Virus record (IMG/VR): IMGVR_UViG_3300029873_000376
Location: 1-5,685 of that record
Length of the DNA stretch: 5,685 bases
Direction: 5' to 3' (one strand)
Source: a virus
Lineage: Duplodnaviria; Heunggongvirae; Uroviricota; Caudoviricetes
This document shows positions 1 through 5,685 of the stretch, piece after piece. Numbering within the stretch: the first letter of the stretch is position 1; each line of letters begins with the position of its first letter. The notes under the pieces were generated by a model. That model made no database searches. It was not told the DNA's origin and saw only the letters and a list, made by a program, of their open reading frames with translations. The translations under genes and the position numbers were made by a program.

Positions 1-558
1 ATGAATACAGCTATAACTTTTTCTAACGAGTCACCAAAAGTCTTTTTCAAAGATGGTCGCCTGGTTACCACCTCTCAAGCTGTTGCCGACTACTTCGATA
101 AACAACATAAACACGTTTTAGCTAAGATTGACACACTCGACTGCTCTCCCGAATTTACATCAGCCAACTTTTCGGCCGATGTTCAGACTGTCGAAATTGG
201 CAACGGCGCAGAACGTGAATCACGATGCTACCTGATCACAAAAGACGGCTTCATGTTCCTCGTAATGGGATTTACTGGCAAAAAAGCAGCCAGACTAAAA
301 GAAGCTTACATTGAAAAATTTAACGCAATGGAAGAAGAACTCCACAAACGTCCTCCTGCAGCACAAAACTCCCCCGCCCCAAATAATGGATGCGCATTAC
401 TGATCCACTTCGATAAATACGGTCAGGTCGAGTTCACAGAAAAAGTCCCCGCCGATGCGATGGTATGCACGCTGGAACGGTTTAAATTTTATCTGGAGCA
501 ACATGGGTGGATCGTTGCCCGTAAAGAACAATTGGTGGAAAGGTTGATGCGGTTTTAA
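1..558 (+). CDS. Rha-family phage regulatory protein (185 aa); the ATG sits at window position 1, so the true start could lie upstream
   Basis: ORF 1..558 with stop TAA at 556-558. The N-terminal segment KVFFKDGRLVTTSQAVADYFDKQHKHVLAKIDTL...FTSANFS matches the pattern I recall for the phage Rha N-terminal domain (short beta-strand, then S..VA..F.K.H..VLR.I..L, then nF). The C-terminal half is not recognised. Followed by a hairpin terminator. Confidence 0.75.
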   Translation: MNTAITFSNESPKVFFKDGRLVTTSQAVADYFDKQHKHVLAKIDTLDCSPEFTSANFSADVQTVEIGNGAERESRCYLITKDGFMFLVMGFTGKKAARLKEAYIEKFNAMEEELHKRPPAAQNSPAPNNGCALLIHFDKYGQVEFTEKVPADAMVCTLERFKFYLEQHGWIVARKEQLVERLMRF

Positions 559-567
559 TGAATGCAA

Positions 568-598
568 AACCCCGGATGATCACCGGGGTTAATTTTAT
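568..598. terminator. Hairpin plus T-tract, candidate bidirectional rho-independent terminator downstream of the Rha gene
   Basis: Perfect 8-bp inverted repeat AACCCCGG (568-575) / CCGGGGTT (583-590) around a 7-nt loop, followed by AATTTTAT on the plus strand. On the minus strand the stem is followed by TTTTGCATTCATT. Confidence 0.5.
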
Positions 599-684
599 CG
601 AGCGTGATTGCCGCTAATCGCCATCGCTCTGATTGAGCGTAAATCATTCAGGTTATTCAGTTCTTCCTTCTGCTCTCGCTGACG

Positions 685-855
685 TCAATAAATCCCATCA
701 TTGCGATCAACCTCATCCTTAACCATTGATGCGAGCAGTTCTTCCAGTTTCTGCGCTGACAGCTTTACCTGGTGATCTTCAGCATCTTCCCGGGCTATTG
801 TGGTTCGCGCAGTGGCTGATTTTGCTGACATCACCACAGGGGGCAGACGGACCAT
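685..855 (-). CDS. Hypothetical small protein (about 56 aa from the Met at 853-855); very uncertain
   Basis: The 3' part of the 685..966 minus ORF. The ORF's N-terminal third overlaps the repeat/hairpin at 920-955 and is probably not coding. The internal ATG at 853-855 has GGAGG about 10 nt upstream. No recognisable family; could be non-coding. Confidence 0.2.
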   Translation of the reverse strand: MVRLPPVVMSAKSATARTTIAREDAEDHQVKLSAQKLEELLASMVKDEVDRNDGIY

Positions 856-919
856 TGAACCATGGCCTCCGGAACAAATAAGGGCAAAAATAACAACCAC
901 TATCGAAAGCTCACAAACT

Positions 920-1089
920 AACCGCAGCACGTTCCTGCATACGACGTGTCTGCGGCATAATCCCAATGATTACTCCCTGACAGGATTTGCAGGCCACTCA
1001 ATATCAGGTGCAGTTGATGTATCAACACGATTCAACAATACCCGATATTTATTCCATGCCTCCAGCAACGATCTTTCTTCCTCCGTTGC
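920..1089. repeat. Direct repeat copy 1 (about 170 bp): 3' end of tfa plus downstream palindromic hairpin
   Basis: Manual alignment of 920-1089 with 1970-2138 gives roughly 85-90% identity at an offset of 1049-1050 bp, same orientation. The two tfa stop codons (970-972 and 2019-2021) are in register. Confidence 0.85.
922..955 (-). terminator. Hairpin 15 nt after the tfa-like stop (minus strand), candidate intrinsic terminator
   Basis: CCGCAGCACGT (922-932) pairs with ACGTGTCTGCGG (944-955), with one bulged T. On the minus strand it is followed directly by TTAGTTTGTGAGCTTT. Confidence 0.4.
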
Positions 1090-1239
1090 GATTTCCAGAT
1101 CTACAGCATCCTGCAGTGGCGCAATATACTCACTGAATTCCTGGATGTAGAACTGTGTGGTGACGGTCTTCCAGCCATTCGGCTCCTGCTGTATCGAAGC
1201 ATACCAGGCTATTTCAATATCGCTATGCTGCGGCAGCAT
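970..1239 (-). CDS. tfa: Short tail fibre assembly (Tfa)-like protein, 89 aa: novel N-terminal about 40 aa fused to the conserved Tfa C-terminal segment
   Basis: The C-terminus [51 protein letters not shown] closely matches the lambda Tfa C-terminus as I recall it ([44 protein letters not shown]). AAGGGG sits 4 nt upstream of the ATG at 1237-1239. At 89 aa it is much shorter than canonical Tfa (about 190 aa). Confidence 0.7.
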
Positions 1240-1295
1240 TTAACCCCTTGTAATTCATCGCCATAATTGATTTAATTCACAAATAAAACTATAAC
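1239..1295 (+). promoter_or_regulatory. AT-rich divergent intergenic region with candidate sigma70-like elements for the methyltransferase gene
   Basis: Candidate -10 CATAAT (1262-1267) with a weak -35 TTTAAC (1239-1244, 17-bp spacer). A second pair, TTGATT (1267-1272) and TATAAC (1290-1295), has 17-bp spacing but would put the transcription start inside the annotated start codon. Consensus matching by eye only. Confidence 0.2.
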
Positions 1296-1964
1296 ATGGT
1301 GAAATCAATGAAAAAAAACACAGATGATGGGGCTAAAATTTACACACCACTTACCCTAAAGCTTTATGACTGGTGGGTTTTGGGAGTATCAAATCGGCTT
1401 GCATGGGGATGTCCTACAAAGGAACACCTTCTTCCACACTTTCTGGAACATGTAGGTAACAACCATCTGGATATTGGTGTTGGAACTGGGTTTTACCTTA
1501 CTCACGTACCTGAGAGTAGTCTGATATCTTTAATGGATTTGAACGAAGCTAGCCTGAACGCGGCATCTACAAGGGCTGGGGAATCAAAAATTAAACATAA
1601 AATTAGCCATGATGTTTTTGAACCTTATCCCGCGGCGTTACATGGTCAATTTGATTCCATTTCCATGTTTTACCTTCTTCACTGCCTGCCTGGAAATATA
1701 TCTACAAAAAGCTGTGTAATACGCAATGCGGCGCAGGCCTTAACTGACGATGGAACTCTATACGGAGCCACAATTCTTGGCGATGGAGTTGTGCACAATA
1801 GCTTCGGTCAAAAACTGATGCGCATTTACAATCAGAAAGGCATCTTTTCAAACACAAAAGATTCCGAAGAAGGCTTAACACATATACTCTCAGAGCATTT
1901 CGAGAATGTTAAAACCAAGGTTCAAGGTACTGTAGTAATGTTTTCCGCTTCAGGGAAAAAATAG
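1296..1964 (+). CDS. Class I (Rossmann-fold) SAM-dependent methyltransferase, 222 aa; alternative start at ATG 1308 (218 aa) with GGTGA 5 nt upstream
   Basis: Glycine-rich motif I LDIGVGTGFY, acidic post-I motif LMDLNE, motif II-like DVFEPYPAALHGQFDSISMFYLLHCLP and motif III-like LTDDGTLY. No DPPY/NPPY or PCQ/ENV motifs, so it is probably not a DNA methyltransferase. Visibly AT-richer than the flanks. From memory, the E. coli K-12 DLP12 prophage carries a methyltransferase-like gene (ybcY) between tfa remnants, which resembles this arrangement; not verified here. Confidence 0.85.
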   Translation: MVKSMKKNTDDGAKIYTPLTLKLYDWWVLGVSNRLAWGCPTKEHLLPHFLEHVGNNHLDIGVGTGFYLTHVPESSLISLMDLNEASLNAASTRAGESKIKHKISHDVFEPYPAALHGQFDSISMFYLLHCLPGNISTKSCVIRNAAQALTDDGTLYGATILGDGVVHNSFGQKLMRIYNQKGIFSNTKDSEEGLTHILSEHFENVKTKVQGTVVMFSASGKK

Positions 1965-1969
1965 CATCC

Positions 1970-2138
1970 AACCGCAGCACGTTCTTGCTTAAGACGTGCT
2001 GCGGCATAATCCCAATGATTACTCCCTGACAGGGTTCGTAGGCCACTCAATATCAGGTGCAGTTGATGTATCAACACGGTTCAGCAACACCCGATACTTC
2101 TTCCAGGCTTCCAGCAACGGAGTTTCTTCCTCCGTTGC
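1970..2138. repeat. Direct repeat copy 2 (about 170 bp): tfa 3' remnant plus palindromic hairpin
   Basis: See copy 1. This copy begins 6 nt after the methyltransferase stop codon (TAG, 1962-1964). Confidence 0.85.
1972..2004. terminator. Perfect palindromic hairpin between the convergent methyltransferase gene and the tfa remnant; candidate bidirectional terminator
   Basis: CCGCAGCACGT (1972-1982) and ACGTGCTGCGG (1994-2004) form a perfect 11-bp stem that can extend to about 14 bp with one bulge. On the minus strand a T6 run lies about 10 nt past the stem (TTGGATGCTATTTTTT). There is no T-tract on the plus strand. Confidence 0.4.
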
Positions 2139-2147
2139 ATATACAGC
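2019..2147 (-). pseudogene. tfa: Start-less remnant of a tfa 3' end (42 codons)
   Basis: Minus-strand translation gives [42 protein letters not shown] then stop (TAA at 2019-2021). An in-frame TGA lies immediately upstream (2148-2150) and there is no start codon. It is homologous to the C-terminus of the 970..1239 ORF. Confidence 0.65.
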
Positions 2148-2157
2148 TCACCTTTTT

Positions 2158-2451
2158 TCACCCACGATTAACCAACAGCCAGACCAGCAGACACGCCACC
2201 ACCGGCACAGCAAAATCCATCAGGCTTGCCACATCCCACGCGCGCGGATCAAAACCGCCCCACCACGGCATATTCATTCGCTTGCCATGCCCGAACATTT
2301 CAATCCAGCGATATTCTGCCTGGGTGTGTTCACGCGCAATGAAGAACGTACAACCAGCTATCGCCCCGTAAGCCCAGTTCCCGGTAAAAAGACCAATCAG
2401 TAGCTGCGCAGCCACAGCACAAAGCGCATGAAGGAAAGGTGTTATATCCAT
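2158..2451 (-). CDS. Hypothetical small membrane protein (97 aa, two predicted hydrophobic helices, Trp-rich linker)
   Basis: Consensus SD AGGAGG lies 4 nt upstream of the ATG (2449-2451) and directly follows the stop of the upstream gene. Hydrophobic segments FLHALCAVAAQLLIGLFTGNWAYGAIAGCTFFIA and ASLMDFAVPVVACLLVWLLV flank a charged, Trp-rich loop. No family recognised. Confidence 0.55.
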   Translation of the reverse strand: MDITPFLHALCAVAAQLLIGLFTGNWAYGAIAGCTFFIAREHTQAEYRWIEMFGHGKRMNMPWWGGFDPRAWDVASLMDFAVPVVACLLVWLLVNRG

Positions 2452-2461
2452 TACTCCTCCT

Positions 2462-3166
2462 TTATCCGATATCGCTTCGGGAAACGGATAACAACTTTAA
2501 TTCTGACTCAAGTTCATCAACTCTTTCAGTCAGCTTCTGGATATGGTGAATCAGTGGAACAACCAGACGTTCGTACATTACACCTTCGGCAACAAGGCCA
2601 TTGCTGGAAATAGCTTCCGGTGCATCATCTTCGTTAGCTGGTCGCCAGTGTACAAACTGAGGGGCAATTTCTCCTACTTCCTCGGCAATCAATCCGTAGA
2701 ATCCCCAGTCACGCCTGTCATTTGCGCATTGTGACCTGTACCACACAGGGCGCATCCTGAAAATGAGATCGGCGTGCTCTGAATCTATTGTCTCTACTGA
2801 ATGTTTATAGCGGATAGACGATGTTGACCGCAGCACAGACGAAATTGCGGGGTCAGGATTAAGATAAAGGTTTGCCGCCGCTGTAGTCGTGCCCAATCCC
2901 CACAAATAAAACGCTTCACGGCCAGTCAACGGGTAAAAATCTCCACCATAACGACCGCTTTCCAGAGCGTTCACTTCCAGTTTGTTTTTCAGCTTATTAT
3001 CAACTTCAGTTTTTGTGTATCTGGTGCTGATATCCTGCTTTGCACTGGTCATATCAGCCTGAAGCGTTGATACTTTTCCGTTAATTGAGGAAATATCTTC
3101 CTTGGCTTTACTGACATCTCCCTTTAACGTGGTGATGTCTCCCGGAATTACTGTCGATGTAGCCAT
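2462..3166 (-). CDS. Tail-fibre-like protein (234 aa) with C-terminal intramolecular-chaperone-like (peptidase S74-type) domain
   Basis: GGGAG lies 4 nt upstream of the ATG (3164-3166). Residues about 112-225 (S-S-I-R-Y-K...ETID...LIFRMRPVWY...WGFYGLIAEEVGEIAPQFV...GVMYERLVVPLIHHIQKL...ELESELKLL) fit the pattern I recall for the auto-cleaving C-terminal chaperone domain of endosialidase-type tailspikes and the T5 L-shaped fibre (S-D-x-R-x-K-x-N-I...L-R-P-V-x-Y...G-F-I-A-Q-E-V...P-E...L-I-x-A-I-Q-E-L). The N-terminal 70 aa are coiled-coil-like with two similar segments (LKGDVSKAKEDISS / LQADMTSAKQDIST). Confidence 0.65.
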   Translation of the reverse strand: MATSTVIPGDITTLKGDVSKAKEDISSINGKVSTLQADMTSAKQDISTRYTKTEVDNKLKNKLEVNALESGRYGGDFYPLTGREAFYLWGLGTTTAAANLYLNPDPAISSVLRSTSSIRYKHSVETIDSEHADLIFRMRPVWYRSQCANDRRDWGFYGLIAEEVGEIAPQFVHWRPANEDDAPEAISSNGLVAEGVMYERLVVPLIHHIQKLTERVDELESELKLLSVSRSDIG

Positions 3167-3175
3167 TTGTCTCCC

Positions 3176-3457
3176 TCACATCCAGCCACGAAGTTGATGT
3201 TCAACTACAACCGCGTATTCATCGAATATTGACGATTTTTTTGCATCATTAATGATGCGCACGTTTACAAAATATCCATCTTCCTTAACACATACCGGTT
3301 CGCCATCTTCAGTCAGTTCTCCGGTTTCTTTGTACACGTTACCTATCACGTCAATAAGAATATCATCCTGCATCGACTCGTCATCATAATAGCCAATGCT
3401 ATCCATAAAGGCCGAAAAGTCGGCCCTGTCTGCAAATTTGAGTGTTAAATCTTTCAT
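3176..3457 (-). CDS. Hypothetical acidic protein (93 aa), translationally coupled to stf
   Basis: Its ATG (3455-3457) overlaps the stf stop codon (TAATG). GGGGGAG sits 8 nt upstream, inside the stf 3' end. Rich in Asp/Glu; no family recognised. It occupies the position where tfa normally follows stf. Confidence 0.55.
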   Translation of the reverse strand: MKDLTLKFADRADFSAFMDSIGYYDDESMQDDILIDVIGNVYKETGELTEDGEPVCVKEDGYFVNVRIINDAKKSSIFDEYAVVVEHQLRGWM

Positions 3458-5685
3458 TAGATTGACTCCCCCATCTGAGCATCAGTCAATGCCTTGTGCC
3501 ATATTCTGAAATTCCTGACATGACCAAATAAATGACGCAACCCGGCTGTAGTCTGGCCTCCAATACGGATAATTGCGGAGTTCTGAATATAGGACCATGT
3601 GGCTTTCTTTTCGCTGGATATACGCCCGTTACTTACTGAGCACGTAGACTGATCTGACTTTACACGCATCCCCATAACCATTTTTTCAAGCGATGCGTTT
3701 TCGTTTACCCGTCTGTTAGCCAAACCTATATCACAATAAGGAAATCCGTCGTAATCTGTTGAACGACCGAAGCCAAGAATAATAGCCGCTCCGGTTTGAT
3801 GACCGCCGGTATCAAAAACACGCGGTGCTGCATTTGGCGTTTTATACCAGTTCTTATGTACCTCACAAAGAACCGTAAAAGGAAGATTATAAAGATTATT
3901 CTTAATTGGAACTGTAACTATATCGCTTGCGCGGGTCGCCGCCGTCGCTCCTGATATAATAAAAGATGATACACAAGGCCCATCTTCTACTTGTGGGGTG
4001 GCCAGATAAATATAGTCACCAGATACGGTTGCCCCGCTCTGCTTAGGAGAATACTGTATCTGAGAGCCTATTTTTAACTCCCCATCAATTGCCTGAATTG
4101 TTGCCTCTGCAAAAATCCATCCGGTAGCTTCGTCCTTTCTGACTCTCGCTGTAATTCTTGAGGCAGCACCGCCTGTCATATTAATTTCAAGCGTTTGTGT
4201 ATCAATATACGCATCACCAAGAAAAGTTGTTGCGCTACCGTCATATTTATCAAACCGGATACGCAACCTTACCTGCAGTTCTGTTTTAAAACGACATGAG
4301 GTTGTCACGTGTTTATTATCGCCTGAGACATCAACTGACTTTGTTGCAGCAATTGATGCCATATTAATGGCTGAGGTTTGCCCAATCAGAGAATCGTTGC
4401 AGACAAACTTTCCATAGGTAAAACCAAAATTATCCGTCCCTGTTTCGGGCACATCCATATTTGACGATCGCCCCCAACTGGCAGGGCTTTCCGAATTGAG
4501 CATGTAGTTTGTTCTTTGCCCCTCAATAAGCAGGCCATCACGTTCAAATCGTGGCTCGTCAATGGCAGCCTCTGTCAGCACACCAGATTTGTTAATATAG
4601 GTTGCTTTCGATGCACGTTTAAACTTAACAATCTTGTCGCCAGGCATCGTTATTTCATCGTCACCAATAACAATTTTTTTATATGATGGCGAAAAGCCCG
4701 TAATCATATCCAGCGAATCGTTAAATGGTATCCACACATCAGGCAGCGGCTGTAAGACATATTTATACGGCTCCGCAGCCTGGCTTGCGTACTCTCTGGC
4801 TGCATCTTCGCTTGCTTTAGCTGCCGTCTGGCTTGCTGCCGATGCTTTCGCTGAGTTCGCAGCCGCTGTTTCGCTCACCTTTGCGTTGGTTTCACTGGTT
4901 TTTGCTGCTTTTTGACTGTTAGCTGATGCAGTGGCAGAAGCAGCCGCCGCGCTTGCAGAACTGGCTGCGGCACTCTCGCTTTGGGCCGCTGCATCCTGAC
5001 TGCTTTTCGCCGCAGTTTCACTGGCTTTGGCATTCGTTTCGCTGGTCTTCGCTGCCGCCTGGCTGGACTTTGCGTTAGTTTCACTCGTCTTCGCAGCTTT
5101 CTGGCTGTTAGCCGCAGCAGTTGCTGATCCAGCTGCTGAAGTCGCAGAACCGGCTGCCGCGCTCTCGCTTTGGGCTGCTGCAACCTGGCTGTTTTTTGCT
5201 GCAGTTTCACTGGCTTTAGCATTCGTTTCGCTGGTCTTCGCTGCCGCCTGTGCGCTGTTAGCTGCATTCGTTTCTGAGGTTTTCGCCGCGTTCTTCGATG
5301 ATGCCGCTGCAGTTTCGGATTTCTTTGCCGCCGCTGCGCTCTGAGAGGCGGCTTCAGCGTTGCGTGCCGCTTCTTCCACCATTGCCTCAAAACGACGCAA
5401 TGCCTCCGGCATGACATCATCTTCCGTCATGGCACCGAGAAAATCATTCAGCGTACCTGGTCTGGAACCTTCATAGACGGTAATGGTTCCGGCATGTGAA
5501 GGCGGAAAACCTTCAACAAGCAGGATAACGCTGTACTGGCCATACTCAACATCCATGCTGTAACGCCCGGCTTCATCCGGATTTTCAGAGGCCACCGTGT
5601 TCACCAGTACCGTGGTACTGTTACGTTTTGCTTTCAGCTGGATTGTGCAGTTCTGTACCGGTTTTCCTGTGCCGTCTTTCAGTAC
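3457..5685 (-). CDS. stf: Side tail fibre protein (Stf-like), 5'-partial: the reading frame is open to the window edge
   Basis: The minus-strand frame is open from 5685 (VLKDGTGKPVQNCTIQ...) through the listed Met at 5604. The N-terminus NTVASENPDEAGRYSMDVEYGQYSVIL.V.GFPPSHAGTITVYE...PGTLNDFL matches the lambda Stf / E. coli prophage side tail fibre N-terminus as I recall it. This is followed by an Ala/Ser/Thr-rich repetitive region and a 440-aa C-terminal domain ending ...LFGHVRNFRIWHKALTDAQMGESI. Confidence 0.9.
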   Translation of the reverse strand, partial: VLKDGTGKPVQNCTIQLKAKRNSTTVLVNTVASENPDEAGRYSMDVEYGQYSVILLVEGFPPSHAGTITVYEGSRPGTLNDFLGAMTEDDVMPEALRRFEAMVEEAARNAEAASQSAAAAKKSETAAASSKNAAKTSETNAANSAQAAAKTSETNAKASETAAKNSQVAAAQSESAAAGSATSAAGSATAAANSQKAAKTSETNAKSSQAAAKTSETNAKASETAAKSSQDAAAQSESAAASSASAAAASATASANSQKAAKTSETNAKVSETAAANSAKASAASQTAAKASEDAAREYASQAAEPYKYVLQPLPDVWIPFNDSLDMITGFSPSYKKIVIGDDEITMPGDKIVKFKRASKATYINKSGVLTEAAIDEPRFERDGLLIEGQRTNYMLNSESPASWGRSSNMDVPETGTDNFGFTYGKFVCNDSLIGQTSAINMASIAATKSVDVSGDNKHVTTSCRFKTELQVRLRIRFDKYDGSATTFLGDAYIDTQTLEINMTGGAASRITARVRKDEATGWIFAEATIQAIDGELKIGSQIQYSPKQSGATVSGDYIYLATPQVEDGPCVSSFIISGATAATRASDIVTVPIKNNLYNLPFTVLCEVHKNWYKTPNAAPRVFDTGGHQTGAAIILGFGRSTDYDGFPYCDIGLANRRVNENASLEKMVMGMRVKSDQSTCSVSNGRISSEKKATWSYIQNSAIIRIGGQTTAGLRHLFGHVRNFRIWHKALTDAQMGESI
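4823..5250. repeat. Imperfect tandem repeat, period about 189 bp (63 codons), roughly 2.3 copies, inside the stf shaft region
   Basis: GCAGTTTCACTGGCTTT(A/G)GCATTCGTTTCGCTGGTCTTCGCTGCCGCCTG occurs at 5012 and 5201. The protein units AAKTSETNAKASETAAKNSQ...NSQKAAKTSETNAKSSQ and AAKTSETNAKASETAAKSSQ...NSQKAAKTSETNAKVSE are near-identical. Confidence 0.8.

Follow-up and report, generated by a model that had tools for sequence, protein, structure and literature searches.

We analysed a 5,685-nucleotide stretch of a caudoviral genome (IMG/VR record IMGVR_UViG_3300029873_000376, positions 1 to 5,685; hereafter the window), whose minus strand carries all of its fibre genes. The subject is a side tail fibre gene, stf, in which a lambda-type front half is joined to a lectin-like cassette, together with the small genes that follow it. 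The window is 100% identical to the chromosome of Escherichia coli BEC1-S17-ESBL-09, where it covers the right-hand end of a lambdoid prophage that is inserted at ompW, beside the trp operon. The order in the prophage is J, lom, stf (749 aa in RefSeq), a 93-aa open reading frame (ORF; orf93), a 234-aa 'tail fiber domain-containing protein' (orf234) and a 97-aa ORF (orf97). Next come two tfa fragments, separated by a methyltransferase gene of opposite orientation, and then a DUF4376 pseudogene, Rha and ash. The stf ORF (3457..5685, minus strand) exits the right end of the window, with 742 codons inside. Residue numbers refer to this 742-aa version unless domain residues are named. From the 5' end of stf onwards, the fibre and its two partners comprise the following features.

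5314..5685, minus strand: N-terminal collar domain of Stf, lambda type (PF08400), with about 7 residues missing at the window edge
4753..5313, minus strand: Ala/Ser-rich shaft, seen from its composition, its repeat family (D1), its GC content (0.567) and its GC content at second codon positions (GC2, 0.70)
4492..4752, minus strand: boundary of the mosaic at 4752 (QPLPDVWIPFNDSL) together with the cassette's highly conserved 'neck', domain residues 14-100, including the N-terminal strands
3928..4530, minus strand: middle beta-sandwich, matching the gene transfer agent (GTA) head-spike-fibre domain (NF048003), predicted to resemble a carbohydrate-binding module (CBM), with a hypervariable body
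3460..3891, minus strand: predicted C-terminal LamG-like jellyroll, with a variable body and a conserved last strand, LFGHVRNFRIWHKALTDAQM
3176..3457, minus strand: orf93, small conserved partner protein (phrog_1361), whose start overlaps the stf stop (ATGA)
2462..3166, minus strand: orf234, short distal fibre protein, starting with the conserved peptide MATSTVIPGDITTLK and containing a coiled coil and, at its C-terminus, a Peptidase_S74 domain (about 2651-2821)

The front half of Stf is of lambda type. Residues 1-124 match the Pfam family phage_tail_N (E = 3.8e-63, 211.9 bits for a gathering cut-off of 26.6), and residues 1-87 share 91% identity with residues 8-94 of the Ur-lambda Stf (PDB 9e7m, E = 2.2e-47). 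A preliminary description of this DNA had called stf chimeric with a lambda-like N-terminus, and the collar bears this out. The gene is also located after J and lom in both phages. The shaft is the equivalent of the proximal coiled coil in the published architecture of lambda Stf (PMC12617516), Ala/Ser-rich in both. Residues 96-305 contain 38% Ala and 18% Ser. Ala, Ser and Thr together make up 65% of the shaft and 25% of residues 312-742, where aromatic residues reach 9% as against 1% in the shaft. A 189-nt (63-aa) tandem duplication, with copies 80% identical, lies within the shaft at 4862-5239. Shaft length varies among homologues (649-777 aa), and gain or loss of repeats probably tunes the length of the fibre.

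Behind the shaft the likeness to lambda ends. In lambda, the distal half of Stf depends on Tfa and forms an intertwined, T4 gp37-like tip for binding to OmpC. In the window, in contrast, this half is replaced by lectin-like domains and separate small proteins, and tfa is present as fragments only. Searches of PDB and Pfam with the C-terminal 444 residues returned neither lambda Stf nor T4 gp37, nor the tip of any other fibre. The gene is not a complete Tfa-dependent lambda-type stf, as it has neither a gp37-like tip nor an intact tfa directly downstream.

The switch between the two halves had been placed near residue 270, counted from an internal GTG at 5604, which corresponds to about residue 297 here. 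The switch is real and its boundary is at residue 312, that is at window position 4752 (QPLPDVW). DNA homology to a P2-like prophage (L006, 92%) and to the T5-like phage IrisVonRoten (L002, 66%) starts exactly at 4752. It stops at 3420 and 3435, about 20-40 nt into the next gene. At the protein level, the junction QPLPDVWIPFNDSL is also found behind a P2 gpH-type N-terminus (P0062) and a T1-type N-terminus (P0099).

Base composition is not uniform across the gene. The GC content rises from 0.527 in the collar to 0.567 in the shaft and then drops to 0.443 for the C-terminal region, and the best change point with all codon positions included is at 4768, 16 nt from the mosaic junction. The high GC2 of the shaft is due to the GCN codons of Ala, and about half of the GC fall is such an amino-acid-composition effect. 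GC at third codon positions (GC3) also falls across the junction, from 0.482 to 0.383 (Fisher p = 0.008); a change-point permutation on GC3 alone is borderline (p about 0.05). The AT-richness of the C-terminal DNA that had been noted at the outset is thus confirmed, with about half of it owed to the amino acids encoded. The cassette is AT-richer than the front of its own gene in lambda-like, P2-like, T1-like and T5-like loci, the exception being an rV5-like locus where the two are about equal in GC. Its GC content is intermediate between the values for the cassette-bearing loci of T5-like and rV5-like virulent phages. From the homology breakpoints, the same junction in other fibre types and the AT-richer cassette, horizontal replacement of the distal half of stf, already proposed in the preliminary description, is well supported by sequence comparison. 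Within one E. coli homologue (P0079), the hinge and the start of the LamG domain are duplicated internally (SGDYIYLATPQVEDG...TGGHQTG occurs twice), as might arise by unequal recombination inside the cassette.

The cassette is predicted to consist of two concanavalin A (ConA)-like beta-sandwich jellyrolls, a CBM-like domain of 'GTA spike fibre' type and a LamG-like domain. Both sandwiches are predicted to be held by the strongly conserved neck, hinge and last strand. The AlphaFold2 model, computed with an alignment of 50 relatives plus 42 Aeromonas sequences (A5), is all-beta and shows the curved two-sheet sandwich of a jellyroll. Its predicted local distance difference test score (pLDDT) is 88.4 and its predicted template modelling score is 0.85; pLDDT exceeds 90 in the middle beta-sandwich. 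An earlier run with the 50 close relatives gave a pLDDT of 69 and left the conserved neck and last strand unfolded. The improvement is due to the 42 diverse Aeromonas relatives.

In profile searches, the NCBIfam family NF048003 (GTA_spike_fiber) matches residues 386-586 of Stf over profile positions 1-181 of 182, with 50.7 bits (cut-off 36) and E = 3e-13. Laminin_G_3 (PF13385) matches the last strands only, at a sub-threshold E = 0.068 (13.7 bits, gathering score 27.6). This alignment pairs domain residues 392-439, the sole part of the window protein that touches the profile, with profile positions 102-149 of 151. Among the 50 aligned relatives, 27 match Laminin_G_3 at E < 0.01, the best at 3.5e-8. 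The Aeromonas relatives have CBM_4_9 and LamG matches, and the NCBI label of some relatives is 'LamG-like jellyroll fold domain-containing'. The ConA-like or LamG-like lectin fold had first been proposed from motifs at the start and end of the domain. Both motifs are present, and the proposal is supported by the model and by the profile matches of relatives. A beta-helix tailspike or depolymerase was also considered and rejected, as no beta-helix protein came near the top of the structural matches. The top phage structural match is gp46 (baseplate wedge 2) of Pseudomonas phage Pa193, a baseplate subunit that holds a tail fibre. It differs from Stf in being a myovirus baseplate component and not a fibre, with 14-16% identity and no homology detectable by sequence. 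The jellyroll could also be an enzyme of the ConA-like superfamily, a GH16-like glycanase or a PL7/PL20-like lyase, cleaving O-antigen or capsule and not just binding it. We consider this very improbable.

Variability within the cassette was examined in 77 E. coli prophage loci with an orf93 91-100% identical. Median identity to the window is 91-92% in the neck and last strand, 52% in the middle domain and 37% in the LamG body. Three segments are highly conserved, namely domain residues 14-100 (neck), 261-300 (hinge) and 421-440 (last strand). Column entropy is 0.5-0.9 in the neck and about 2 in the domain bodies. Both sandwich bodies, at window positions 3532-4491, are variable, with identities of 20-50% and minima of 20% between near-identical flanks. 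The sandwich variants occur in free combination with a distal fibre that has only two main types, one of 234 aa and one of 346 aa. Hypervariable surfaces flanked by conserved segments are typical of specificity domains. The variability pattern fits a glycan-binding specificity domain, as judged from these alignments.

A single PDB entry is related in sequence to the cassette. It is Rcc01080 (GhsB, NF048003), the head spike fibre protein of the Rhodobacter capsulatus GTA (RcGTA), found at E = 1.1e-7 with the single sequence and at 1.5e-15 with a profile. The homologous part of the two proteins runs from the neck strands through the middle beta-sandwich to the hinge. With the RcGTA spike fibre, capsule-bearing cells are bound far better than capsule-less mutants (PMC10218006). 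Rcc01080 differs from Stf in its length (325 aa), in having no LamG body, and in being a single chain on the capsid pentamer and not a trimeric tail fibre. As evidence for the fold, the Rcc01080 structure was rejected; only residues 2-10 are resolved and it is silent on this point.

The cassette might instead have a structural role alone, as a branching hub to which the distal fibre attaches, with host specificity residing in the distal fibre only. This appears quite unlikely. The sandwich bodies, 20-50% identical, are more diverse than the distal fibre with its two main types in the 77 loci, and the RcGTA homologue binds capsule. We favour, from sequence evidence, a knob that would bind glycans at the knee of the fibre and would also carry the distal fibre.

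The position at the knee is suggested by the genes that follow, and the structural match to Pa193 gp46, which holds a tail fibre, points the same way. The preliminary description made the lectin-like domain the fibre tip, but the fibre probably extends beyond it. An ORF of about 93 aa always follows the cassette, and the next gene after it encodes a second fibre protein in lambda-like, P2-like, T1-like and T5-like contexts. Homologues of orf93 were found directly after the cassette in lambda-like, T5-like (two phages), rV5-like, P2-like and T1-like loci and in an Aeromonas podovirus-like prophage. Their identities across these contexts are 23-42% (Aeromonas 30%, E = 1e-7). In 77 of 80 IMG/VR loci, found starting from orf93, the cassette ends at the orf93 start codon, and the order cassette fibre, ORF of about 92 aa, peptide-bearing fibre protein is likewise present in 77 of the 80. 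The orf93 protein remains 91-100% identical where the adjoining lectin bodies drop to 20-50%. No relative of it was found in Pfam, NCBIfam or PDB, including with a small profile. We propose orf93 as a candidate adaptor or assembly factor.

The second fibre protein begins with a peptide, MxTxTVIPxDITxLK, that is nearly invariant across the same four contexts and is found in 77/77 loci; the body behind it varies. The three-gene order is conserved in the lambda-like, T5-like, P2-like and T1-like loci examined. In the alignments made, these phage loci are otherwise alike only in the cassette and orf93, and the simplest inference is that the distal peptide docks there.

In the window, the distal fibre is orf234. 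Its residues 116-172 match the S74 domain (PF13884) at E = 7.5e-6, with 26.6 bits for a cut-off of 22. The segment S-S-I-R-Y-K aligns with S-D-x-R-L-K of the T5-like homologues and keeps the spacing of the Ser...Lys dyad. We considered that orf234 might be a truncated remnant of a 1,385-aa fibre (phrog_3299). This was rejected: phage tinuso has a full-length homologue of 224 aa, with 61% identity from end to end, and the protein has exactly 234 aa in 36/77 loci. Distal-fibre alleles in the E. coli prophage loci (L011-L090) are essentially of two kinds, 234 aa and 346 aa long, with their first ~15 codons in common. Identity to the DNA of PhiR63_1 is lost at window position 3123, about 43 nt into orf234, which marks a second mosaic junction.

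The closest described system is that of the Tequintavirus IrisVonRoten (Bas32). The C-terminal cassette of its Gp22 is homologous to that of Stf (63% identity in amino acids and 66% in DNA) and begins at the same junction. Gp22, Gp23 and Gp24 are, in this order, a fibre, a product of about 92 aa and a further fibre that shares the N-terminal peptide of orf234 and likewise has an S74 chaperone. Humolli et al. (2025) described a protruding 'galectin-like domain' at the C-terminus of Gp22 as a possible extra receptor-binding domain (PMC11990801). In their AlphaFold-Multimer model, the lectin-like domain is a side protrusion of the proximal fibre that carries the distal fibre (PMC11990801). The systems differ in several respects. 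Gp22 has a T5-type N-terminus that attaches via LtfC and no lambda collar. Gp24 is a T-shaped distal fibre of 574 aa with two receptor-binding domains, as compared with the 234-aa stub here. IrisVonRoten is virulent, whereas the phage of the window is temperate.

Branched fibres of this principle are also known in the T5-like phages DT57C and DT571/2 (LtfA/LtfB) and in phiEco32 (gp14/gp15), where the proximal fibre carries a second fibre via a short conserved N-terminal segment (PMC4728585). We liken them to the present case by description and not by homology. The LtfA of DT57C and DT571/2 ends in its own receptor-binding domain with an S74 chaperone and not in lectin-like domains, and a small intervening ORF was not reported (PMC4728585). 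A lectin-like fibre domain is not mentioned in the phi92 electron cryo-microscopy paper or in the DT57C papers.

These data allow the tip position to be weighed again. As a terminal receptor-binding tip, the lectin-like domain would fold unaided with nothing attached to it, and orf93 and orf234 would be unrelated neighbours or an independent second fibre. The lectin fold itself, the lack of tfa after the gene in any context, and an RcGTA homologue that acts as a single free-ended chain (PMC7296036) are all in keeping with such a tip. So are the Aeromonas and rV5-like loci, where the gene after the small ORF does not have the conserved N-terminal motif. However, orf93 overlaps the stf stop and stands after the cassette in every lineage examined. 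The distal peptide is common to lambda-like, P2-like, T1-like and T5-like loci that, as compared, are otherwise alike only in the cassette and orf93, and in the published multimer model the distal fibre is joined to a homologous proximal fibre. A terminal tip thus seems unlikely, less so than the structural hub.

We therefore retain, as the reading we find reasonably probable, a mosaic side tail fibre with a glycan-binding knob at the knee and orf234 as its distal fibre. A lambda-type collar and an Ala/Ser-rich coiled-coil shaft are joined at codon 312 to a mobile cassette of about 430 aa, as the sequence comparisons show. According to this model, each chain of the fibre trimer would bear its own lectin-like knob, located at the knee and not at the tip. 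The knob would bind surface polysaccharide, O-antigen or capsule, in a reversible manner and would contribute to host specificity. The conserved neck and the 93-aa protein would anchor the invariant N-terminal peptide of orf234. The latter would fold by means of its own S74 intramolecular chaperone, making Tfa unneeded.

Several points weigh against this model. The sugar-binding role is predicted from the fold, a distant homologue and the variability pattern, and the binding and assembly roles are predicted for this protein and all its coliphage homologues alike. The window protein stays below the Pfam LamG gathering score (13.7 versus 27.6 bits), and the structure is a monomer model that does not describe trimer geometry. 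Attachment of orf234 to Stf would follow from synteny and from the published prediction. The distal fibre is not a universal partner, as the missing motif in the rV5-like and Aeromonas loci indicates. Finally, orf93 may serve as a dedicated chaperone, and the fibre would then have one after all. Since orf93 sits where fibre chaperones are usually encoded, the chaperone-free character of the fibre is not established.

The initial proposal that the fibre needs no Tfa can be considered in this light. No gene for a Tfa-type chaperone is next to the cassette in any context examined, in agreement with the proposal. The S74 domain of orf234 explains the tfa relics better than unaided folding of the lectin domain does, and orf93 itself may have a chaperone role. 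Because orf234 has its own S74 chaperone, a Tfa would have no obvious client here. In the P2-like prophage, the distal fibre has no S74 domain and is followed by an intact Tfa.

The cassette family is large and already annotated. The cassette corresponds to phrog_1419 and carries the name 'phage head spike fiber domain-containing' or 'LamG-like jellyroll fold domain-containing' in the NCBI annotation pipeline (PGAP). It is found in P2-type, T1-type, T5-type, rV5-type and Aeromonas prophage fibres, and the RcGTA head spike has a more distant version. The family comprises 2,011 clusters (50% identity, E <= 1e-3), and many distant relatives match the neck stretch only. Cassette matches occur in 1,774 of 5,426 complete E. 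coli genomes, about a third. The lectin-like reading has already been published for a homologue (PMC11990801). The under-studied parts are orf93 and the division of labour between knob and distal fibre; the locus is otherwise a case of ordinary tail-fibre mosaicism. 'Campylobacter phage C13' and 'C14' (MG065692.1, MG065653.1) and some 'Listeria' records also carry the cassette, with up to 88.7% amino-acid identity. These records are probably mislabelled or contaminant coliphage genomes.

A wider proposal can be made, which we hold only tentatively. The cassette and orf93 may form a universal 'knee' module of at least six unrelated tailed-phage lineages, reduced in the GTA. The fibres would then have dual specificity, each chain with a hypervariable knob and a socket for interchangeable distal fibres that plug in via a 15-residue peptide. 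In this proposal orf93 would be a new adaptor or assembly protein, and in E. coli lambdoid prophages host range would be set mainly by the knob and not by the distal fibre.

Chimeras of lambda Stf are already used to retarget DNA-delivery particles, for example with receptor-binding fusions at Stf residue 393 (bioRxiv 10.1101/2025.02.28.640725). The QPLPDVW junction offers a natural, recombination-proven fusion point that brings a self-contained three-gene receptor module. If the knobs are the specificity element, their variants would be a ready-made library of glycan binders. If orf93 is needed for assembly, chimeras made without it would fail.

Beyond orf234, the same strand of the window contains a further small gene and the remains of tfa.

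2158..2451, minus strand: orf97, small hydrophobic protein that closes the module (phrog_1443)
2019..2138, minus strand: tfa 3' fragment, pseudogene (RefSeq annotation), second copy of the direct repeat D2
970..1239, minus strand: tfa 3' fragment, pseudogene or ORF remnant with a Caudo_TAP match (RefSeq pseudogene call at 970-1146)

The orf97 gene has a GC content of 0.54, unusually high for the region. It is kept behind both distal-fibre types and is 96.8% identical at the DNA level in PhiR63_1 despite the different distal-fibre type of that phage. The protein may have a membrane or lysogenic-conversion function.

The remains of tfa are two 3' fragments only, both more than 1 kb downstream of stf. 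RefSeq treats them as pseudogenes, and the degraded tfa that the preliminary description had recognised is confirmed. The ORF at 970-1239 matches Caudo_TAP over positions 75-130 of 131 (E = 6e-25). Both fragments are probably relics of earlier cassettes. Two 140-nt direct repeats (950-1089 and 1999-2138, 91% identical) each correspond to the 3' end of tfa. They flank a plus-strand gene for a class I S-adenosylmethionine-dependent methyltransferase (1296-1964, GC 0.41). The arrangement resembles that of a cargo gene placed between the duplicated tfa ends, or recombined through them.

The prophage ends in the first part of the window. At 1-558, and at 11419-12558 of locus L005, ash and Rha family genes lie beside a truncated ompW. 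The window therefore spans the right arm of the prophage up to the attachment site.

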